Assembly: GCA_016699915.1 (NCBI GenBank)
Contig: CP064990.1
Span: 512,671-576,670 of the forward strand
Length of the DNA stretch: 64,000 nt
Direction: 5' to 3'
Source of the DNA: Neisseriales bacterium
Lineage (GTDB): Bacteria; Pseudomonadota; Gammaproteobacteria; Burkholderiales; Q3-R57-64
Of the stretch, positions 11,174 to 55,035 are shown one piece after another (positions within the stretch are counted from its first letter, which is position 1; each line of letters begins with the position of its first letter). Both the position numbers and the translations under genes were made by a program. The notes under the pieces were generated by a model. The model was not told the DNA's origin, made no database searches, and saw only the letters and a program-made list of their open reading frames with translations.

Positions 11174-11689
11174 TTATGATTCATTATTTTTGGTTTTGAC
11201 CACTCGCCTTGCACTGTTATAACGCTTCGCCCAATACGATGATTTGATATTGCTAATTTCAATATATTTACCTGTGCGCGGCGCGTGGACAAATTTATCA
11301 TCTCCTAGGTATAGCCCGACGTGCGAATTTCTACCACGCCTTGTATTAAAAAACACAAGATCACCTGGTTTTAATTCCTTTAACGTGACTAGTACGCCGA
11401 TACGCGCTTGCTCTGCTGCAGTACGGGGCATACTCAAATTCAGGGATTGCTTGAAAATATATTGAATAAATCCGCTACAATCTAAACCTCGAATTGGGTT
11501 AGAGCCACCAAATTTGTACGCGACACCAATTAGGGTCATGGCTTGCAACAAAAGCTCATCTACCGCTGTACTTTGTGCTAATTCAGATTCAGTGGCCGTA
11601 TCCGCACTCGCTGGGGAGGTAAACACTAGACCCATTACATTGCAAAAACTAGCCAAAATTATGATAAAAAAACGGCACTTTAAAATCAT
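11174..11689 (-). CDS. Secreted NlpC/P60 (C40) cell-wall peptidase
   Basis: Signal peptide ending SPASA. Catalytic Cys context GLDCSGFIQYIF and His context NSHVGLYLGDDKFVHAP. Confidence 0.85.
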   Translation of the reverse strand: MILKCRFFIIILASFCNVMGLVFTSPASADTATESELAQSTAVDELLLQAMTLIGVAYKFGGSNPIRGLDCSGFIQYIFKQSLNLSMPRTAAEQARIGVLVTLKELKPGDLVFFNTRRGRNSHVGLYLGDDKFVHAPRTGKYIEISNIKSSYWAKRYNSARRVVKTKNNES

Positions 11690-11704
11690 CAGACATACAC
11701 ACAG

Positions 11705-11736
11705 ATAAATAGGTTAGATGATAAATAGGTTAGATG
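11705..11736. repeat. Perfect tandem 2 x 16 bp repeat (ATAAATAGGTTAGATG) just upstream of the NlpC/P60 start; duplicated at 19121-19152
   Basis: Read directly: ataaataggttagatg ataaataggttagatg, followed by the degenerate atgaatag. Confidence 0.9.
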
Positions 11737-11783
11737 ATGAATAGTTCAGGGAAATTATATACCCAAAAATTCTAAAAACTGAC

Positions 11784-11802
11784 TAGCTAACTAGATTAGC
11801 TA
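11784..11802. promoter_or_regulatory. 19 bp perfect palindrome TAGCTAA-CTAGA-TTAGCTA in the divergent NlpC/P60-autotransporter control region (candidate operator); second copy 19199-19217
   Basis: Seen in sequence: 7 bp arms with a 5 bp centre. No known regulator motif assigned. Confidence 0.25.
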
Positions 11803-12112
11803 AGGATAAGCTTACGCAAAACCTCTAAAATTAAAGAAAAATAAAATCATACTGGCGGTACAATCTTTCTCATTTTGAAGCGCTCTGCTAATATATTTTA
11901 TGCCCTACCCTATAACAATGCTGTCTAATATAAACTATGTTAATCTGTTTCTAGGTGGCTTTAATACTGGATTCCATACGATCTTACAACTAGTAACGAT
12001 TAAGAATAATTAAGAAAGGAAGAAAAGATATTTTCAATATTTGAATAAAAATTATTGACAAATACGCACACTGAACAATTTTAGTGTATCGTGGCAACAT
12101 ATTTTTTCATAA

Positions 12113-14590
12113 ATGCTCAACATGCAGAAAATTTATTCTTTTGTTAAGCATCTTTTTTTGATATTTTTTGTTCTCCAATTACTCATTAATTTGGGCGGTT
12201 GCGCCTCTACTGGTGGCGGGGAGACAAAAAAAGGAAATTATACACCTCCTCCACCTACAGAAGAACCTGCACCTACAGAAGAACCTGCACCTCCTCCACC
12301 TACAGGACCTAATCAAACTGTTGATATGGATTTTGATGGTTTACAAGACAAGCTGGATCCCAAACCCAATGACACCGACAATGATGGCGCCACCAATGAT
12401 CAAGATGAAGATGATGACAATGATGGGATAGAAGATGACGATGAAAGCATCAACAAACAATATGACACGGACAATGATGGCATCAGAAATGATACGGATC
12501 CGGATGATGACAATGATGGTTTAAATGAAGCCGAAGGGGGATATCCTGATGCTCAAGGTGATCGGAAGCCCTATGACACCGACAATGATGGCAAAACCAA
12601 TGATCAAGATCCTGATGATGACGATGATGGGATAGTGGATGCTAATGATGGTGATCCGTTACATCCGCTCGAAAAAGGTCCAAAAGTGGATACGGATTTC
12701 GATGGTTTAGTAGATGACCAAGACACCATGGATAATGACACCGACAATGATGGCACCACCAATGATGAAGATGAAGATGATGACAATGATGGCTTTGAAG
12801 ACGAGGATGAGGGCGTGGATTGGTTTATCGAAGCCTTATCTGTTGAACAACAATATGCTTATACCTTTGACACGGACAATGATGGCATCAGAAATGATAC
12901 GGATCTAGATGATGATGCCGATGGTTTAAATGAAGCCCCAGGAGGTTTTCTTGATCCTCAAGGTGATCGGAAGCCCAATGACACCGACAATGATGGCGCC
13001 ACCAATGATCAAGATGAAGATGATGACAATGATGGGATAGAAGATGACGATGAAAGCATCAACAAACAATATGACACGGACAATGATGGCATCAGAAATG
13101 ATACGGATCCGGATGATGACAATGATGGTTTAAATGAAGCCGAAGGGGGATATCCTGATGCTCAAGGTGATCGGAAGCCCTATGACACCGACAATGATGG
13201 TATCAGAAATGATGAAGATGAAGATGATGACAATGATGGGATAGAAGATGACGATGAAAGCATCAACAAACAATATGACACGGACAATGATGGCATCAGA
13301 AATGATACGGATCTAGATGATGATGCCGATGGTTTAAATGAAGCCCCAGGAGGTTTTCTTGATCCTCAAGGTGATCCCAAACCCAATGACACCGACAATG
13401 ATGGCGCCACCAATGATCAAGATGAAGATGATGACAATGATGGGATAGAAGATGACGATGATGATCAACCATTAGATCCAAATAATCCTCATAAGTTAGC
13501 TTATCTTCTCGACAAGGACTTGCAATCGAATCAATCAGAAGCACCATTGACCGATACCGATGGTGATGGCCTTATGGATTCAAAAGATCCTTTACCAAAA
13601 ATTCATCAAGGGGTAGTGAAAGCAGCAACCTATTTAGCTCATCGAGAATTAACTCTCAAGGTTTTTAACTACGATGTCCAACAAGTTTTAACTCAAATAC
13701 CTGATAACAACAAACCTACTTGGGGAACTTGGATGCAAATCCAAAAATTGGGTGCAACGCAATCTATTCAAGCGACTCAAGAACAAGCGGATGCTGATAC
13801 ACAATACCATATTGTTTCAACCAATTATGGTGGCTGGATGACTCAATGGGGTATCAATACGATCCAACGCCAAGACACGACCCTCTACCATGTGGGTTTA
13901 ACAGCTGGCTTAATGCAAGCAACCCTTATTGCTGATGATCATCATCCAGCTTCGATCACCACAATAACCAAAGGTTTTGCTTTGGGTGGTTATGGTTTTT
14001 ATAAAGGTACCCAAGGTGAAATCGCTTTCAGTCTTCAAAAAGGTTGGTTTGATCATCAACAAGATGTAGCCTATCAAAGCAGTACCCTCATCAGTCATAT
14101 CAAAGCTACTTATGCTTTACACACTTGGGGCGCATTAACCTTCAGCCCAACTTTGGATATTACTTATCGCTTTAATACGGATAATCTGAATGAAACAACG
14201 ACAGAAAATCAATCCATGTATGAAGGGATATTGGGTCTTCGTGTATCCAGCGTTTGGGGTAGATTGGCTCCCTTCATAACGGTTGATTATAAATTGGGGG
14301 CATCGGATGATCTAAAGGTGACTCAAGATGATGCCAAACAAACTACTTTTACTCTCAAAACCCAACCAATACCTATTCATTTTGGCCTACAAGGTGGATT
14401 GACTTATACTCCCAATCATCAATGGAATCTACAAAGTCAATTAAGTTATCGAGACAAAACACTGAATGTAGACTGTCAATTAAACTATCAGCTTCATGAA
14501 GCGCTTAGTCTAAGTGCTAGCTTGCATGAAACCTTTTTGAAGACAGACGTTGATGTTAAAGGAGAAGTGGGATTAAGATGGGGGTGGTGA
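12113..14590 (+). CDS. Lipoprotein-type autotransporter with a thrombospondin-type-3-like Ca-binding repeat passenger (long allele, 825 aa)
   Basis: N-terminus MLNMQKIYSFVKHLFLIFFVLQLLINLGGC (h-region plus LGGC lipobox-like site), then Pro-rich linker PPPPTEEPAPTEEPAPPPPTG. About 400 aa of DxDxDGxxNDxD units follow (DTDNDGIRNDTDPDDDNDG...). The C-terminal ~285 aa has alternating beta-strand character and ends GEVGLRWGW (aromatic terminal motif of an OM beta-barrel). Confidence 0.7.
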   Translation: MLNMQKIYSFVKHLFLIFFVLQLLINLGGCASTGGGETKKGNYTPPPPTEEPAPTEEPAPPPPTGPNQTVDMDFDGLQDKLDPKPNDTDNDGATNDQDEDDDNDGIEDDDESINKQYDTDNDGIRNDTDPDDDNDGLNEAEGGYPDAQGDRKPYDTDNDGKTNDQDPDDDDDGIVDANDGDPLHPLEKGPKVDTDFDGLVDDQDTMDNDTDNDGTTNDEDEDDDNDGFEDEDEGVDWFIEALSVEQQYAYTFDTDNDGIRNDTDLDDDADGLNEAPGGFLDPQGDRKPNDTDNDGATNDQDEDDDNDGIEDDDESINKQYDTDNDGIRNDTDPDDDNDGLNEAEGGYPDAQGDRKPYDTDNDGIRNDEDEDDDNDGIEDDDESINKQYDTDNDGIRNDTDLDDDADGLNEAPGGFLDPQGDPKPNDTDNDGATNDQDEDDDNDGIEDDDDDQPLDPNNPHKLAYLLDKDLQSNQSEAPLTDTDGDGLMDSKDPLPKIHQGVVKAATYLAHRELTLKVFNYDVQQVLTQIPDNNKPTWGTWMQIQKLGATQSIQATQEQADADTQYHIVSTNYGGWMTQWGINTIQRQDTTLYHVGLTAGLMQATLIADDHHPASITTITKGFALGGYGFYKGTQGEIAFSLQKGWFDHQQDVAYQSSTLISHIKATYALHTWGALTFSPTLDITYRFNTDNLNETTTENQSMYEGILGLRVSSVWGRLAPFITVDYKLGASDDLKVTQDDAKQTTFTLKTQPIPIHFGLQGGLTYTPNHQWNLQSQLSYRDKTLNVDCQLNYQLHEALSLSASLHETFLKTDVDVKGEVGLRWGW
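12320..13590 (+). repeat. In-frame mosaic array of TSP3-like repeat codons with long perfect internal duplications
   Basis: 12365-12591 is identical to 12974-13200 (227 bp, offset 609 bp). The GATGAAGATGATGACAATGATGGGATAGAAGATGACGATGA block recurs at about 12404, 13013, 13216 and 13421. Confidence 0.9.
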
Positions 14591-14731
14591 TTATTGTTGG
14601 GGCGTGCAATAAGTTGGGTGGACTCACTAACTATTTTTGTACACATGCAACGTCGACTTAATCATAGCCTTCTCGTTGTACCTATCACTACAAACAGTGA
14701 CTTCCTTCAAAAGATAAAACTACTATTTGGA

Positions 14732-14831: not shown

Positions 14832-14908
<77 letters not shown>

Positions 14909-15119
14909 TTGGCTTAGCCAAACCCAAGCGATTATCTATGAAAATAATAATGTGAGCAACTATTCGTGTCTGCCAAGTAATATACTGCTCAATCATCCAA
15001 TTGATTAGTTTATCTAAACAAAATAAGGTATATAAACTACAACAAAATAAATCAGATGATATGAATTCAGAATTATAATTATGCATCGCCTTTAATTTAT
15101 GTGAGGTTTGAGATACTCC

Positions 15120-15689
15120 GTGAGCATTAAATCAGACCAGTGGATACGTCGCATGGCCATCGAAAAAGATATGATTGCCCCTTTTGAATCAAAGCAAATC
15201 AAGATTGTTGATGGCAAAAGGATTATCTCATATGGCACATCTAGTTATGGTTATGATATCCGTTGTGCCGATGAATTTAAGGTATTCACTAATATCAATA
15301 ACTCTATTGTTGACCCTAAAAACTTTGATCCGCAATCATTTATTGAAATTTCGGGCAAAGGATACTGCCTGATCCCTCCCAATTCTTTTGCCTTAGCAAG
15401 GACATTAGAATATTTTAAGATCCCGCGCAATATTCTCACTATTTGTGTAGGTAAATCAACTTATGCTCGCTGCGGCATTATTGTCAACGTTACCCCATTT
15501 GAGCCAGAATGGGAAGGTTATGTTACGTTAGAATTTTCTAATACCACGCCCTTGCCTGCTAAAATCTACGCCAATGAAGGGGTAGCCCAAGTATTATTTT
15601 TTGAGTCCGACGAAATTTGCGATACTTCCTATAAAGATCGACAAGGAAAATATATGGGTCAGCAAGGGGTAACACTACCTAAAACTTAA
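15120..15689 (+). CDS. dcd: dCTP deaminase
   Basis: [12 protein letters not shown]...YGYDIRC...[26 protein letters not shown]. Start set at GTG 15120 by analogy to the MSIKSD N-termini of homologues. The track ORF begins at TTG 15108. Confidence 0.9.
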
Positions 15690-15730
15690 GTCCAAACTAT
15701 TATTATGTAGTCAGCTATACAATTTTAGGT

Positions 15731-16330
15731 TTAGGCAGCAATGTCACTTTTTCCTCTGGGCAACCACTTGACAACCTGTGGCGGATGATAGTGTTCTAAA
15801 GCCATCAATAGCTCTTCTGGTGTTGAATGGGAAATAAGTAAATCGCTATGTTTTTTGCGCATAAAGCCTGCTGCAATATTGGCTTGAAGCAAAGACAAAA
15901 GCGGATCAAAAAAACCGTTGACATTTAGCACGCCACAAGGCTTCTGATGCAGTCCAATCTGAGACCAAGATAATATTTCAAATAATTCTTCAAAAGTCCC
16001 TAATCCACCAGGTAATGCAATAAAGGCATCAGATAAAGCCATCATACGCGCTTTACGCTCATGCATGTTGGCAACAATTTCTAACTGAGATAGCTTAGGA
16101 TGCGCCTGTTCTTTATCAACCAATATATGAGGTATAACACCTGTTATGTGCCCGCTTAGCTCAATTACTGTATCCGCCATTACACCCATTAACCCAATTT
16201 TTCCACCACCATAAACTAGCTTACGTTGGCTTTGAACAAGTGTGCGAGCAAGCGCTTTAGCGGCCATTTCATAAGCAATATCCACCCCATGATTAGAACC
16301 ACAAAATACACAAATTGTTTGCAATTTCAT
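15731..16330 (-). CDS. LOG family protein (TIGR00730; cytokinin riboside 5'-monophosphate phosphoribohydrolase-like)
   Basis: VYGGGKIGLMG and the LPGGLGTFEELFE (PGGxGTxxE) motifs. Confidence 0.8.
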   Translation of the reverse strand: MKLQTICVFCGSNHGVDIAYEMAAKALARTLVQSQRKLVYGGGKIGLMGVMADTVIELSGHITGVIPHILVDKEQAHPKLSQLEIVANMHERKARMMALSDAFIALPGGLGTFEELFEILSWSQIGLHQKPCGVLNVNGFFDPLLSLLQANIAAGFMRKKHSDLLISHSTPEELLMALEHYHPPQVVKWLPRGKSDIAA

Positions 16331-16514
16331 ATGTTGTGATCACCTTAAAAAGAGGAGCACATTGTATTGCATTTTACGTGCTAACATGGCGATACTGACA
16401 AGATAGCTATGAGTTTTATTGAAAAGTAGGCCTTTCTAAACAAATTTGAGTTAAGAATCAAAAATAAAGTTATGCTAGAATAAACAAATTAAATTTAATT
16501 TGGGGAGTGTGCCC

Positions 16515-17039
16515 GTGCTAGCACCAGAAATGATCCAACGTTTAAATAACCAAATCAATTTGGAGTTTTATTCTTCTAATCTTTATTTGCAGATGAGTGC
16601 TTGGGTAGCTGATAGAGGGTTTACGGGATCCGCTTTCTTCTTGGGTAAGCATGCAGCGGAAGAATTAACACATATGCAACGCTTGTTTAGCTATGTGAGT
16701 GAAACGGGAGGTTTACCCATCATTGGTGCAATTGCAGCACCTCCTAGTCAATTTTCATCGCTTACCGAAGTATTTCAGCAAACGCTTGCACATGAAAAAA
16801 TGATCACCACTCAAATTAATGAATTAGTACACACTGCAATGGCGATGAAAGACTACTCTACCTTTAATTTTTTGCAGTGGTATGTTAGTGAACAGCATGA
16901 AGAAGAAAAACTCTTCCGGGGTATCTTAGATAAGATTGAAATGATCGGTCAAGACAATAAATCATTCTTTTTGGTGGATAAAGAAATCCAAAATATGGCA
17001 AGAATTGGTGTCGTAGCTAATGCTGCGCCCCATGGATGA
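16515..17039 (+). CDS. ftnA: Non-heme ferritin
   Basis: (M)[29 protein letters not shown] parallels E. coli FtnA [21 protein letters not shown]. GTG 16515 lies 7 nt after GGGGAG. The track begins at TTG 16500. Confidence 0.85.
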
Positions 17040-17056
17040 TTTACTAAACTTGATAT

Positions 17057-17133
17057 GGCGAATTAGCTCAGTTGGTTAGAGCGACGGAATCATAATCCGC
17101 AGGTCCGGGGTTCAAGTCCCTGATTCGCCACCA
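17057..17133 (+). tRNA. tRNA-Met (anticodon CAT, elongator type; tRNA-Ile2/lysidine not excluded)
   Basis: GGCGAATTAGCTCAGTTGGTTAGAGCGACGGAATCATAATCCGCAGGTCCGGGGTTCAAGTCCCTGATTCGCCACCA. The G1-C72 pair argues against an initiator. Confidence 0.85.
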
Positions 17134-17268
17134 TAGCGTAAATCTTCAATTTAATATTTTTTTAATTACAAAGTAACTTGATTGATGATGTACTGGTAGC
17201 TTAATGGACTGAAATCTAGACAAAATCAGTCACCTTAATTCTAACAAAATAGAGAGATTAGCATAGAC

Positions 17269-18651
17269 ATGAAAAAACAGTCTGTTCCCGCACAAGAATC
17301 TTCTTTACACAGAGGGCTTGCCAATCGACATGTCCAAATGATTGCAATTAGTGGCGTTATTGGCACAGGTTTATTCTTGGGTGCCGGCAAAACAATCAGT
17401 CTTGCTGGTCCATCTATTATCTTCGTTTATGCAATCATTGGTTTTATTTTATATTTTGTAATACGTGCTATGGGCGAAATACTTCTATCCAACTTACAGT
17501 ATAAGTCCTTCCTTGATTTTATTGATGATATTTTAGGTCCAATGTGGGGGTTTTTTGCAGGGTGGACCTACTTATTCAGCTGGACCGTAACAGTGATAGC
17601 TGAAATTATTGCTGTTGCTGGCTTTATGCAATTTTGGTTTCCAGAAACCCCTGCTTGGATTCCAGCGCTTACTTGTACTTTAGTGCTAATGGGGATGAAT
17701 TTGACCACCGTTAAACTATTCGGTGAAACAGGATTTTGGTTCGCTCTGATCAAAGTGGTTGCCATATGTGCTTTAATTGTGATTGGGTTAGGTTTTATTG
17801 TTACAAGCTTTGAATCATCTGCAGGTATAGCCTCATTTAGTCATATTTGGAATCATGGTGGATTTTTCCCAAAAGGGATATTTGGATTTCTTGCGGGATT
17901 CCAAATTGCGATATTTACATTTAACGGAATTGAGCTACTGGGTACAACTGCTGCCGAGACATCCGAACCGACCAAAACACTTCCAAACGCAATTAATACT
18001 GTGCTGTGGAAAATAGTCTTTTTATATATAGTTACACTAGCTGTCATTATGAGTGTAACACCTTGGAACATGATCTCATCTAGCAAGAGTCCGTTTGTAG
18101 GCATGTTTATGCTCATCGGTTTTCCTGCAGCCGCTGGTATCATCAATTTTGTCGTACTAACAGCCGCTGCCTCAGTGGGTAATAGCGGGATCTTTTCAGC
18201 TAGTCGAATGCTCTATGGTTTAGCGGAAAAAGGGGATACACCACAATTATTTAGAAAATTATCTCGTCGTGCAGTGCCAGCTAATAGCATTTATATCATG
18301 AGTATTTGTACGTTAGGTAGTGCTGTTTTAATGTTGTACTTTATCCCTAATGTGATGGAAGCTTTTACTGTGGCAACTTCTTTAACAGCCATCCTGATTA
18401 TGTGCGTCTGGTCTATTATTGCTTACACTTATATTGTTTACCGTAAGAAACGGCCAGAATTGCACGAACAATCTATTTATAAGATGCCGTGGGGCATTCC
18501 TATGTCTTGGATTGCAATTGGATTTTTTATTTGCATGGCTGTTTCATTGGCTTTTAAAGAAGACACACGTATTGCATTGGAATTTGTGCCATTCTGGTTT
18601 ATTTTCTTAGCCATCATCTGTAGCGTTCTTCAGAAAAATAAAACCAAATAA
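17269..18651 (+). CDS. Amino acid permease (APC superfamily, AAT family; CycA/AroP/ProY-like)
   Basis: 460 aa, about 12 TM. N-terminal signature LHRGLANRHVQMIAISGVIGTGLFLGAG. Confidence 0.85.
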   Translation: MKKQSVPAQESSLHRGLANRHVQMIAISGVIGTGLFLGAGKTISLAGPSIIFVYAIIGFILYFVIRAMGEILLSNLQYKSFLDFIDDILGPMWGFFAGWTYLFSWTVTVIAEIIAVAGFMQFWFPETPAWIPALTCTLVLMGMNLTTVKLFGETGFWFALIKVVAICALIVIGLGFIVTSFESSAGIASFSHIWNHGGFFPKGIFGFLAGFQIAIFTFNGIELLGTTAAETSEPTKTLPNAINTVLWKIVFLYIVTLAVIMSVTPWNMISSSKSPFVGMFMLIGFPAAAGIINFVVLTAAASVGNSGIFSASRMLYGLAEKGDTPQLFRKLSRRAVPANSIYIMSICTLGSAVLMLYFIPNVMEAFTVATSLTAILIMCVWSIIAYTYIVYRKKRPELHEQSIYKMPWGIPMSWIAIGFFICMAVSLAFKEDTRIALEFVPFWFIFLAIICSVLQKNKTK

Positions 18652-18669
18652 GTATTTTGGTATCCAAAA

Positions 18670-18705
18670 CAGCAAAAATCAGTTACTGGTTTTTGCTGTT
18701 TTTTT
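18670..18705 (+). terminator. Rho-independent terminator of the permease gene
   Basis: CAGCAAAAA-tcagttactgg-TTTTTGCTG followed by TTTTTTT. Confidence 0.75.
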
Positions 18706-18817
18706 ATGATGAATTGTTGTTTGATCTGGAAAATGTCATGTTAGTTTTTATGGACATATTCTCGGAGAACATAGATCTCAATCAATAAAGCATTTGCCGA
18801 ATTCTAGCGACTGATGG

Positions 18818-19105
18818 TCAATCAAAATCTGCTGCAGTACGGGGCATACTCAAATTCAGGGATTGCTTGAAAATATATTGAATAAATCCGCTACAATCTA
18901 AACCTCGAATTGGGTTAGAGCCACCAAATTTGTACGCGACACCAATTAGGGTCATGGCTTGCAACAAAAGCTCATCTACCGCTGTACTTTGTGCTAATTC
19001 AGATTCAGTGGCCGTATCCGCACTCGCTGGCGAGGTAAACACTAGACCCATTACATTGCAAAAACTAGCCAAAATTATGATAAAAAAACGGCACTTTAAA
19101 ATCAT
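18818..19105 (-). pseudogene. 5' fragment of the NlpC/P60 peptidase gene (duplicate; first 91 codons identical to 11174-11689 product, then DFD*)
   Basis: The ORF translation is identical through ...LNLSMPRTAA. It stops before the catalytic His and keeps the signal peptide and Cys motif. The duplication boundary is at 18828. Confidence 0.9.
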
Positions 19106-21007
19106 CAGACATACACACAGATAAATAGGTTAGATGATAAATAGGTTAGATGATGAATAGTTCAGGGAAATTATATACCCAAAAATTCTAAAACTGACTA
19201 GCTAACTAGATTAGCTAAGGATAAGCTTACGCAAAACCTCTAAAATTAAAGAAAAATAAAATCATACTGGCGGTATAATTTTTCTTATTTTGAAGCGTTC
19301 TGCTAATATATTTTATGTTTTATTTTATAACAATGCTGTCTAATATAAACTATGTTAATCTGTTTCTAGGTGGCTTTAATACTGGATTCCATACGATCTT
19401 ACAACTAGTAACGATTAAGAATAATTAAGAAAGGAAGAAAAGATATTTTCAATATTTGAATAAAAATTATTGACAAATACGCACACTGAACAATTTTAGT
19501 GTATCGTGGCAACATATTTTTTCATAAATGCTCAACATGCAGAAAATTTATTCTTTTGTTAAGCATCTTTTTTGATATTTTTTGTTCTCCAATTACTCAT
19601 TAATTTGGGCGGTTGCGCCTCTACTGGTGGCGGGGAGACAAAAAAAGGAAATTATACACCTCCTCCACCTACAGAAGAACCTGCACCTACAGAAGAACCT
19701 GCACCTCCTCCACCTACAGGACCTAATCAAACTGTTGATATGGATTTTGATGGTTTACAAGACAAGCTGGATCCCAAACCCAATGACACCGACAATGATG
19801 GCGCCACCAATGATCAAGATGAAGATGATGACAATGATGGGATAGAAGATGACGATGATGATCAACCATTAGATCCAAATAATCCTCATAAGTTAGCTTA
19901 TCTTCTCGACAAGGACTTGCAATCGAATCAATCAGAAGCACCATTGACCGATACCGATGGTGATGGCCTTATGGATTCAAAAGATCCTTTACCAAAAATT
20001 CATCAAGGGGTAGTGAAAGCAGCAACCTATTTAGCTCATCGAGAATTAACTCTCAAGGTTTTTAACTACGATGTCCAACAAGTTTTAACTCAAATACCTG
20101 ATAACAACAAACCTACTTGGGGAACTTGGATGCAAATCCAAAAATTGGGTGCAACGCAATCTATTCAAGCGACTCAAGAACAAGCGGATGCTGATACACA
20201 ATACCATATTGTTTCAACCAATTATGGTGGCTGGATGACTCAATGGGGTATCAATACGATCCAACGCCAAGACACGACCCTCTACCATGTGGGTTTAACA
20301 GCTGGCTTAATGCAAGCAACCCTTATTGCTGATGATCATCATCCAGCTTCGATCACCACAATAACCAAAGGTTTTGCTTTGGGTGGTTATGGTTTTTATA
20401 AAGGTACCCAAGGTGAAATCGCTTTCAGTCTTCAAAAAGGTTGGTTTGATCATCAACAAGATGTAGCCTATCAAAGCAGTACCCTCATCAGTCATATCAA
20501 AGCTACTTATGCTTTACACACTTGGGGCGCATTAACCTTCAGCCCAACTTTGGATATTACTTATCGCTTTAATACGGATAATCTGAATGAAACAACGACA
20601 GAAAATCAATCCATGTATGAAGGGATATTGGGTCTTCGTGTATCCAGCGTTTGGGGTAGATTGGCTCCCTTCATAACGGTTGATTATAAATTGGGGGCAT
20701 CGGATGATCTAAAGGTGACTCAAGATGATGCCAAACAAACTACTTTTACTCTCAAAACCCAACCAATACCTATTCATTTTGGCCTACAAGGTGGATTGAC
20801 TTATACTCCCAATCATCAATGGAATCTACAAAGTCAATTAAGTTATCGAGACAAAACACTGAATGTAGACTGTCAATTAAACTATCAGCTTCATGAAGCG
20901 CTTAGTCTAAGTGCTAGCTTGCATGAAACCTTTTTGAAGACAGACGTTGATGTTAAAGGAGAAGTGGGATTAAGATGGGGGTGGTGATTATTGTTGGGGC
21001 GTGCAAT
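18828..21007 (+). repeat. Copy B (2180 bp) of the segmental duplication (partner 11412-14610)
   Basis: See copy A. 3199 - 2180 = 1019 bp, which is the 1017 bp repeat-array indel plus two 1-nt homopolymer indels. Confidence 0.95.
19528..20987 (+). pseudogene. Second autotransporter allele (short repeat array), frameshifted at a T6 tract after codon 15; residual ORF 19572-20987 (471 aa) from TTG
   Basis: ATG 19528 reads MLNMQKIYSFVKHLF then TGA (19573-19575), because T6 (19568-19573) replaces T7 (12153-12159). Downstream protein is 100 percent identical to the long allele except for the 339 aa array difference. Confidence 0.75.
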
Positions 21008-53013: not shown

Positions 53014-55035
53014 CTACGTTCGTAACGTTGCACCAATTGTACTGACCGCATCAAGTAACTGATCCATTGCGGCATTAATTTCGTCATCAACGAGCGTTTT
53101 ATCCATAGCTTGCAACAAGACATGGTAGGCCATACTTTTCTTGCCTAGCGGGATTCCAGAACCACTATAGACATCAAATAACTCAATGGATTTGACAATA
53201 TGTGGTGCATGGCAATACAAAGCATCATATAACTGCTTGGCCGAACAAGTTTTATCAACAATCAGCGCCAAATCACGCTTGACCATGGGAAACTTAGACG
53301 TGGTACGATAACTTGCTAAACATTGTTCGTATAATACTTCGATACTGAACTCACTTAAAATGGGTGCGCTAAGTAAATGATATTGCTGGGTAAGCTGGGG
53401 CGACAATTCTCCAATAACACCAATAACTTGCCGATCAAGTAAGATATTTGCAGCACGGCCTTGATGTAAGGCTAGATGTTCGATAGGCTCAAACTCGGCC
53501 TTACGCGGTGCAAACAAGGCTTCAATGTCAGCTTTAACATCATAAAAATCAACGCGTGATTCAGCATAACCCCATTGCTCAGGATAGCGCGCTCCCCAAG
53601 CTAATAAACCTATATAAGCCTTCTGCTCAGCTTGCTGATTGATCCCGCTAAAGATATTGGCTATCTCAAAACATCGCACACGCGTATGCTGGCGATCCAT
53701 ATAATAGATCAAACGCTCCACTAAAGTTCCTAACAGGGTGGAGCGCATCATGGTCGCTTGACTATCAATAGGGTTTAGAAGTCGCACTAAAGACGTTTGA
53801 AATGAAAAATTTTTCTCTAACGCCTCTGATACAAAAGGATAGTGAATGACTTCTTGATAGCCTCTTGCGACTAATACCTGGCGTAGGAAGCGAGATTGCA
53901 CTACAGCTTTAGGTTGCAAAACCACATGCAAGGGCGCAGATGGGCTAAGCGCTGGAATATTGTCGTAACCATACAGTCTTGCAATTTCCTCAACCAAATC
54001 TTCCTCAATCATTAAATCGTTGCGAAAGCTTGGCTTGCTAACTGTAAAATGACCCGTTTGCCGTGTAAAATTAAGCATTAAACGCGCTAATATCGTAGCG
54101 ATTTTCTCATCAGGAATATGGATACCAAGTAATTGCTCAACGCGTTTTGTGTGTAGATCAATAAACTGATCGCATAAACTATCGCCTTGTTTCTGAACAA
54201 TCGATCCGACTTGTCCACCAAAACTTTCTACAATCAACTGGGTTACCCGTTCAAGCGCTTCTTGTTGCGCTGTACTATCAATACCCCTTTCGAACCGATA
54301 GGCCGCTTCAGAAACAATGCCCAAGCTACGTGCTTTATTAGCCACCACATTAGGTTGAAAATAGGCCGACTCTAAAAATAGATCTTGTGTCGTAGATGTC
54401 AGAGCACTTTCCATACTACCCATTATGCCCGCAAGAGACAAAGGCTTTTTGTCATCCGCAATGACTAACATCGTCGCATCCAATGTGATGAGTTGATCAT
54501 TTAAGCAATGTAATACCTCGCCCATTTTTGCCATTCTAACTTGTATAGCCCCATCAATTTTTTTAGCATCAAAAATATGGAGAGGCTGTCCTAGTTCTAG
54601 CATCACATAGTTGGCTATATCAACAACTGTTGAAGTAGGTACCAATCCACTAGCTACGAGGCGATCAGTGATCAACTGTGGTACGCACCCATTGATTAAA
54701 TCAATGTGTCGAATTAACCGACCAGTATAGAAACAACAGGCGCTTGGCTCATGAATATGTACAGCGGGCGCTCGGTGATACGTAATAGTAGCTGGAATAA
54801 CACAGGATGGATGCCAAGGCGTGTTCGTTAAAGCGGATACTTCCCTTGCTAAACCCTTAATAGATAGGCAATCTCCACGATTAGGCGTAATTTTAAAGAG
54901 AAAAATATGATCTGTCTTACCACTTGGATATATAGCCTCAACCTCAATACCCGACACGGTTAATAATTCTGCAAGATCTTCAATTGATAGCGGAGGATCT
55001 ACCCAATGGCGTAACCAGCTTTCTAGAATTTGCAT
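53014..55035 (-). CDS. pheT: Phenylalanine--tRNA ligase beta subunit (673 aa, lacks the N-terminal OB-fold tRNA-binding insert)
   Basis: MQILESWLRHWVDPPLSIEDLAELLTVSGIEVEAIYPSGKTDHIFLFKITPNRGDCLSIKGLAREV aligns to E. coli PheT residues 1-40 and then directly to ~150 onward (TIEISVTPNRADCLG). Confidence 0.9.
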   Translation of the reverse strand: MQILESWLRHWVDPPLSIEDLAELLTVSGIEVEAIYPSGKTDHIFLFKITPNRGDCLSIKGLAREVSALTNTPWHPSCVIPATITYHRAPAVHIHEPSACCFYTGRLIRHIDLINGCVPQLITDRLVASGLVPTSTVVDIANYVMLELGQPLHIFDAKKIDGAIQVRMAKMGEVLHCLNDQLITLDATMLVIADDKKPLSLAGIMGSMESALTSTTQDLFLESAYFQPNVVANKARSLGIVSEAAYRFERGIDSTAQQEALERVTQLIVESFGGQVGSIVQKQGDSLCDQFIDLHTKRVEQLLGIHIPDEKIATILARLMLNFTRQTGHFTVSKPSFRNDLMIEEDLVEEIARLYGYDNIPALSPSAPLHVVLQPKAVVQSRFLRQVLVARGYQEVIHYPFVSEALEKNFSFQTSLVRLLNPIDSQATMMRSTLLGTLVERLIYYMDRQHTRVRCFEIANIFSGINQQAEQKAYIGLLAWGARYPEQWGYAESRVDFYDVKADIEALFAPRKAEFEPIEHLALHQGRAANILLDRQVIGVIGELSPQLTQQYHLLSAPILSEFSIEVLYEQCLASYRTTSKFPMVKRDLALIVDKTCSAKQLYDALYCHAPHIVKSIELFDVYSGSGIPLGKKSMAYHVLLQAMDKTLVDDEINAAMDQLLDAVSTIGATLRT

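Follow-up and report, generated by a model that had tools for sequence, protein, structure and literature searches.

Laboratory work predicts that deaminase toxins and damage to single-stranded DNA (ssDNA) create diversity in natural bacterial populations. In the literature, clear natural footprints of such events are scarce, and none was found described in wild genomes. Among the bacterial enzymes, SsdA deaminates cytosines in ssDNA after any of the four bases (PMC7901873), and deaminase toxins mutagenise the cells that survive them (PMC12494967). Here, a dense patch of C-to-T differences was analysed in a stretch of 64,000 nt (64 kb, the window) from the chromosome of an uncultured Neisseriales bacterium (assembly GCA_016699915.1, contig CP064990.1, positions 512,671 to 576,670). 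The source is a metagenome-assembled genome (MAG) represented by one assembly, of which the window was the part inspected. It contains a dispersed chromosomal duplication of ~2.3 kb with two copies, A and B, and within 50 bp of copy B ten T appear where copy A has C on the same strand. In particular, 10 of the 14 C in this tract (71%) were changed, compared with none of the 5 G and none of the 31 A/T.

The closest described activity would be that of the SsdA/BaDTF2 type of toxin, by resemblance and not by a demonstrated link. These toxins are bacterial, specific for ssDNA and able to turn C into T after any base, and the changes in the patch are likewise C-to-T and independent of sequence context; however, the mutations reported for such toxins are genome-wide, while here a single dense patch was found and no toxin, immunity gene or exposure was identified. 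DddA (BaDTF1) is also a bacterial C-to-T mutagen, but it needs a 5′-TC context and duplex DNA and acts on both strands, whereas only 2 of the 10 changes stand in a TC context and no G was changed. Moreover, the patch resembles kataegis, produced in yeast and human cells by AID/APOBEC enzymes on ssDNA exposed at break repair, break-induced replication and R-loops, in that only C changed, on one strand, in a cluster with sharp edges, and also in that it adjoins a rearrangement (the duplication itself and, in a sister strain, a deletion). On the other hand, it lacks the TpC, WRC or CC preference, it packs its changes far more densely into a shorter span (71% of the C within 50 nt vs. a few hits over kilobases), its host is bacterial, and all of its changes are C-to-T with no C-to-G, as seen in kataegis only without uracil excision. 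To our knowledge, bacteria have no AID/APOBEC genes.

Three further processes share some features with the patch. The hypermutation caused by APOBEC3 on the nascent ssDNA of retroviruses and hepatitis B virus likewise edits one strand only, and very densely, while the DNA is briefly single-stranded, but it belongs to a host-virus system, shows dinucleotide preferences and edits whole genomes instead of 50 nt. Repeat-induced point mutation likewise produces C-to-T transitions in duplicated DNA; however, it is known only from fungi, prefers CpA and extends over the entire duplication, in most cases in both copies, whereas here 50 of ~2300 bp were affected in one copy. Finally, diversity-generating retroelements also leave two repeat copies differing at one type of base, but they turn adenines into any base within a coding variable repeat close to a reverse transcriptase gene, while the differences described here are exclusively C/T, the site is intergenic and no reverse transcriptase, mobile element or nucleic-acid deaminase was seen among the open reading frames (ORFs) of 120 aa or longer in the window. 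As a kind of event, what is proposed below would add an example to a mutational process already known and would not be a new system.

The patch and the two copies that carry it

Copy A of the duplicated segment spans positions 11412-14610 of the window (blastn and a repeat finder), and copy B, a partial derived duplicate located between an amino-acid permease gene and an SDR gene, spans positions 18828-21007, neither of them being assigned a strand. The alignment of both copies comprised 2268 gap-free positions with 11 substitutions, of which the only one outside the patch was found at 11615 (G in copy A) and 19031 (C in copy B). Furthermore, two homopolymer indels were detected, namely A5 at 11774-11778 in copy A vs. 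A4 in copy B, and T7 at 12153-12159 in copy A vs. T6 at 19568-19573 in copy B, and ~922 bp of the internal array of 204-nt tandem repeats of copy A (12445-13366) were missing from copy B. A preliminary description of this DNA had counted a single substitution outside the patch over ~2130 bp; the single substitution was found again, while the aligned length proved to be greater and the two indels had been overlooked.

The T-variant patch occupies positions 19276-19325 of copy B, and its C-variant counterpart in copy A, composed of 14 C, 5 G, 11 A and 20 T, occupies positions 11861-11910, both read on the + strand. When both loci were read and aligned, the ten sites appeared in copy B at 19276, 19280, 19286, 19298, 19318-19320 and 19323-19325, exactly where they had been placed before, and in copy A at 11861, 11865, 11871, 11883, 11903-11905 and 11908-11910. 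For the latter copy, the differences had been described correctly with coordinates 10 too high, the quoted 60-mer lying at 11856-11915 instead of 11866-11925. The two haplotypes can be told apart by the stretches ATGTTTTATTTTATAAC and ATGCCCTACCCTATAAC.

In the rest of the alignment, none of the 438 C was changed, which yielded a P-value of 1e−17 for the patch against the remainder (Fisher's test), and the approximate scan probability of finding 10 of 11 uniformly placed substitutions in one 50-bp span was 1e−13. The observation is thus real in the assembly and highly non-random, and the earlier statement that the pattern is far from random drift holds. With the nearest unchanged C outside the patch at 11856 on one side and 11916 on the other, the affected tract measured 50-59 nt and had sharp edges. 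Inside it, four C remained unchanged (11869, 11881, 11885 and 11888 in copy A; 19284, 19296, 19300 and 19303 in copy B). The base preceding the changed C was A in two cases, T in two, G in two and C in four, while the unchanged C of the patch were preceded by T (two) and G (two). From this tally of preceding bases, no target motif emerged in the patch (TpC, CpC, WRC, CpG or methylase-type); two of the four TC sites were unchanged, only two of the ten changed C followed a T, and only two of the ten changed sites were CpA. Among their consequences, the changes turned TACAAT into TATAAT (11859-11864 in copy A, 19274-19279 in copy B) and erased CCCTACCC from copy B, both as previously noted.

Polarity of the changes and independent samples

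A contig of a related species assembled by Logan (L083), with an NlpC protein 84% identical and a spacer ~25-35% diverged, was taken as outgroup. Its gene order (lolD, lolE, an 80-aa ORF, nlpC, the intergenic region and an acidic lipoprotein gene) is that of locus A and, on the basis of this synteny, locus A is the ancestral one and copy B the derived one. Signs of decay were also found in copy B, including a truncated nlpC, fewer repeats and a stop in the frame 15 codons after the ATG at 19528.

The comparison with relatives, which the preliminary description had proposed as a means to polarise the changes, gave a mixed outcome at the level of single sites. The outgroup had C at 5 of the 9 alignable sites (11865, 11871, 11883 and, in each CCC, the central position), which point to copy B as derived, and T, like copy B, at the other 4, site 11861 being unalignable; it reads TCT/TCT where copy A reads CCC/CCC and copy B reads TTT/TTT. 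These triplets belong to a tandem pentamer (11903-11912 in copy A, 19318-19327 in copy B), which is CCCTA-CCCTA in copy A, TTTTA-TTTTA in copy B and TCTTA-TCTAA in the outgroup (minus-strand reading, ~1041-1032 of the contig), a parallel variation that could be due to chance or to a pyrimidine constraint at these positions. The four T of the outgroup could equally be changes on its own long branch, and a C-to-T change in copy B at all ten sites would be the more parsimonious reading as a single event, without being proven. The opposite polarity, according to which ten T became C in copy A (A-to-G on the minus strand) through adenine deamination or an adenine-directed process similar to that of diversity-generating retroelements, would agree with the T that the outgroup has at four tract positions. 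However, the outgroup carries C at 11865, 11871, 11883 and both middle tract positions, only 10 of 30 T would have changed and all of them to C, no reverse transcriptase was present among the window's ORFs of 120 aa or longer, and the site is intergenic and not a variable repeat within a gene. This direction is considered highly improbable.

The duplication itself was found in an independent sample. A contig of the same species assembled by Logan from sample DRR274965 (L001) was 99.95% identical to positions 14862-19064 of the window (4.2 kb), and it carried both the left junction of copy B at 18828 and the B-specific C at 19031, which confirms that the duplication is real; since the junction is shared, the duplication is older than the split of the two sampled strains. 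In that strain, the sequence jumps from 19064 to ~19371 (contig positions 4204-4235), so that a segment of ~306 bp (19065-19370, no strand assigned) is missing from copy B, including the start of the nlpC remnant, half of the intergenic region and the patch. This deletion indicates that this part of copy B is dispensable and was lesioned separately and, together with the decay of the copy, argues against purifying selection on the region. The overlap of the deletion and the patch could be due to chance, the deletion covering ~14% of copy B. Related sequences were found only in a few Logan-assembled runs, namely DRR274965, SRR11524796, ERR15459718 and SRR17933183, the first two of which hold the same species.

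The T haplotype was not observed independently, as the contigs derived from the permease either end before the patch or have it deleted. Exact-protein look-ups with NlpC (171 and 95 aa), LolE, SDR and two 37-aa ORFs overlapping the patch gave no matches, and only the permease retrieved contigs. Moreover, no match was found among the metagenome contigs of the Joint Genome Institute (JGI), neither to a pattern degenerate for both haplotypes nor to a pattern of the conserved nlpC start, and in a set of species-representative genomes the NlpC query revealed no close relative, the best hits being Neisseriaceae MAGs with 62-64% identity. The search for a third copy suggested in the preliminary description was carried out across the window, where none was detected with up to 14 mismatches to either 50-mer.

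These searches bear on a short import of the T haplotype, by gene conversion or transformation, from a third copy or from another strain. Members of the Neisseriales can generally take up DNA by natural transformation, the near-identity of copies A and B outside the patch would suit ongoing conversion, and the T found at 4 of 10 sites in the outgroup indicates that T is tolerated there. However, no donor was found among the sequences searched (the JGI metagenome contigs and the 64 kb, the latter with a tolerance of 14 mismatches in 50), and a donor would have to share with copy A the remaining 40 bases of the patch, the four unchanged C among them, which means that the burst would simply be moved to another copy. 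Ordinary divergence also gives a mixed spectrum of substitutions, while all ten changes are of one type; even if C-to-T accounted for 30% of substitutions, ten in a row would have a probability of ~6e−6. An import is accordingly judged very unlikely.

A second possibility is an artefact of assembly or polishing, such as a mis-polished 2-kb repeat, the consensus of a strain mixture or base-calling errors on locally modified DNA. The preliminary description had already raised this caveat, which weighs more now that the source is seen to be a MAG. The length of the contig (912,463 bp) suggests a long-read assembly, and the only two indels between the copies (A5/A4 and T7/T6) are homopolymeric, a typical form of the long-read errors that persist in repeats where short reads cannot be placed uniquely for polishing; moreover, neither the exact-protein look-ups nor the JGI scans provided an independent contig across the patch. 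On the other hand, errors linked to modification follow motifs and would strike both copies, and we know of no long-read error that produces ten mixed-context C-to-T calls in 50 bp of one copy with flanks identical for hundreds of bases. In addition, the genes are intact across the 64 kb, which indicates that the assembly is well polished, and reads from a diverged strain would have added substitutions of other types, as illustrated by the outgroup, which differs at many non-C positions here. An artefact is deemed unlikely, if still a serious concern.

Candidate causes of the C-to-T changes

The explanation tentatively preferred here, with slightly more doubt than confidence, is a single burst of context-independent cytosine deamination on the + strand of a single-stranded tract of up to 59 nt in the decaying copy B. 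After the duplication, this tract would have become single-stranded, possibly on the occasion of gap repair, D-loop formation or recombination. An agent with no preference for sequence context would then have deaminated 10 of the 14 C to uracil, and these uracils would have been copied as T before uracil excision turned them into abasic sites, so that ten one-strand C-to-T changes became fixed. Selection would not have opposed them in a copy that shows signs of decay. Among the three explanations offered in the preliminary description, deamination of ssDNA fits best because only C was changed, on one strand, at a density of 71%, with sharp edges and no motif; conversion from a third copy only relocates the burst, and selection on the promoter or operator found no support. 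Indeed, only a process that acts on cytosines, on one strand and with high efficiency over a few tens of nt fits all these facts. Spontaneous deamination is slower by orders of magnitude than needed to convert 71% of the C in one episode, so an enzyme or a strong chemical agent must be assumed. Furthermore, neither C-to-G nor C-to-A was found among the ten changes, which, by analogy with work in yeast, suggests that the uracils were copied directly instead of being processed to abasic sites, and such a pure C-to-T outcome would fit weak or absent uracil excision.

Several points weigh against the deamination burst. To begin with, the mechanism depends on that assumed enzyme or chemical, spontaneous deamination being far too slow, and no deaminase was found when the ORFs of 120 aa or more were examined in the window, which represents 64 kb of at least 912 kb. 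Moreover, the evidence comes from a single locus in one MAG and was read from the assembly consensus. The outgroup has T, like copy B, at 4 of the 6 positions of the CCC tracts, which makes a C-to-T direction less certain at those sites, and four C of the patch escaped the change, the hairpin that could shield two of them lacking statistical support. Finally, the published mutagenesis by deaminase toxins consists of genome-wide C-to-T changes and not of one dense 50-nt patch (PMC7901873, PMC12494967). A more specific version, in which the patch would be the footprint left in the wild by a context-independent ssDNA cytosine deaminase, either an interbacterial toxin that the cell survived or an endogenous activity on recombination or duplication intermediates, is regarded as distinctly unlikely.

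Other mutational mechanisms were considered and rejected. Template switching was discarded, as the B-specific k-mers spanning at least two changed sites matched only up to 10 AT-rich bases nearby. In the case of quasi-palindrome correction (AAAATCATAC ... GTAYAATYTT), the complementarity increased only at the C positions and the other mismatches persisted; the change was therefore not templated, since a templated event would have copied every position. Ultraviolet light was dismissed as well, given that dipyrimidines account for 9 of the 10 sites and likewise for 3 of the 4 unchanged C, and that the other strand was untouched. Deamination linked to a methyltransferase motif was also rejected, no motif being shared among the sites. 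Regarding a structured RNA in which G-C pairs were compensated as G-U, neither copy folded better than shuffled sequences on either strand, whether as DNA or as RNA (z-scores from −1.35 to +1.46), and no match was obtained in Rfam at E ≤ 1, so this option was also discarded. In the minimum-energy fold, an outer stem paired the unchanged C 11885 and 11888; it was not significant and left 11869 and 11881 unexplained.

Stepwise selection remodelling the promoter or operator of copy B, by turning TACAAT into TATAAT and removing the CCCTA-CCCTA site, was considered in addition to the deamination burst. One of the changes does create a consensus −10 hexamer, the pentamer pair varies in parallel in copy B (TTTTA-TTTTA) and in the outgroup (TCTTA-TCTAA), and the six tract changes fall within the spacer of a candidate minus-strand promoter (TTGTTA-17-TATATT). 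However, promoter-like sites numbered three per copy compared with 3.0-3.1 expected from shuffles, and the new TATAAT (19274-19279) lacks a usable −35 element, having gaaaaa there, and has no TG extension. Moreover, selection leaves unexplained both the restriction of the changes to C and the occurrence of ten hits against one background substitution in ~2200 bp, the two genes flanking the patch in copy B are damaged, and the other strain deleted the region. Such selection therefore seems scarcely credible.

Flanking genes and implications of the patch

The patch lies inside a divergent intergenic region of 423 bp, at 172 nt from the start of an NlpC/P60 peptidase gene and 203 nt from the start of a gene encoding 825 aa. 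In locus A, the NlpC/P60 (C40) peptidase gene is full-length (11174-11689, minus strand, 171 aa; identical to QQS16319.1), and its earlier assignment was upheld by Pfam (PF00877, E-value 2e−31, residues 55-162). In copy B, a truncated nlpC remnant of 95 aa (18818-19105, minus strand; QQS16325.1) retains the first 93 aa identical to those of copy A. A 16-nt direct repeat, GATAAATAGGTTAGAT, was found in 2.5 copies just upstream of the nlpC start codon (11704-11744 and 19120-19160) and in one copy in the outgroup, and it may be a regulator-binding repeat. Furthermore, a 37-aa ORF (11900-12013 in copy A, 19315-19428 in copy B) starts within the patch, where the changes turn MPYP into MFYF; it was rejected as the target of the change, being unconserved in the outgroup, where the frame stops after 8 codons.

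On the other side, the 825-aa gene of copy A (12113-14590, + strand) encodes a lipoprotein with an LGGC lipobox and acidic repeats. Its 204-nt tandem repeats, which differ in number between copies A and B, encode the acidic, calcium-binding-like motifs DTDNDG/DDDNDG, and they are followed by a rare C-terminal domain of ~350 aa ending in GLRWGW. The paralogue in copy B (19528-20987, + strand) has a broken frame, as the one opened by the ATG at 19528 reaches a TGA after 15 codons and an ORF of 471 aa restarts at the TTG at 19572. The frameshift results from the T6 tract at 19568-19573, which is T7 in copy A (codons 14-16), and this difference could reflect either slippage resembling phase variation in the gene of a surface protein or a long-read error left uncorrected in the consensus of a repeat.

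The former annotation of the 825-aa protein as an autotransporter found no support, as every family test failed. Pfam gave no match to the whole protein and none to its C-terminal 296 aa at E ≤ 10, and the autotransporter β-domain (PF03797) was absent from the protein and from its three longest relatives. Searches for homologues with the whole lipoprotein and with its N-terminus gave no match, the whole-protein search having probably been swamped by low-complexity acidic words, and no relatives were found in the Protein Data Bank. Only six relatives appeared among 1.84 billion representative proteins, and a single-sequence structure model of the C-terminus (AlphaFold) was unusable (mean confidence score, pLDDT, of 32). 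Judging from these searches, the 825-aa lipoprotein is a surface protein that comes close to being an orphan.

Elsewhere, the window corresponds to a housekeeping chromosome, with genes for Mfd, RlmB, ribosomal proteins, LolCDE, Dcd, ferritin, RNase E, SecA, DnaB, DnaE, RecR, PheST and ThrS, among others. The dcd gene, which encodes a dCTP deaminase, is located between copies A and B (15108-15689). It was rejected as the cause of the patch, its substrate being nucleotides and not DNA, and its position was treated as a coincidence. In addition, the PheT homologue (53014-55035, minus strand) has only 673 aa, with the B3/4 domain from residue 99, which suggests that it is devoid of the N-terminal tRNA-binding domain of typical bacterial PheT; this shortening may be a sign of genome reduction.

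As both copies of the segment began identical, the duplicate serves as an internal control by which a dense one-strand patch can be recognised without the genome of an ancestor. If the patch were an artefact, it would reveal a way in which the polishing of repeats fails in metagenome assemblies, and this would be worth documenting. If, in contrast, sequencing reads confirm it, the patch would be a rare natural scar of kataegis-like deamination in a bacterial chromosome, with the paralogue as its internal reference, and, should it be the footprint of a toxin or an endogenous deaminase, the equivalent of kataegis in bacteria, preserved in a genome from the environment. In that case, scanning paralogous copies in long-read genomes would offer a practical measure of how often, and in which sequence contexts, such mutagenesis occurs in nature.

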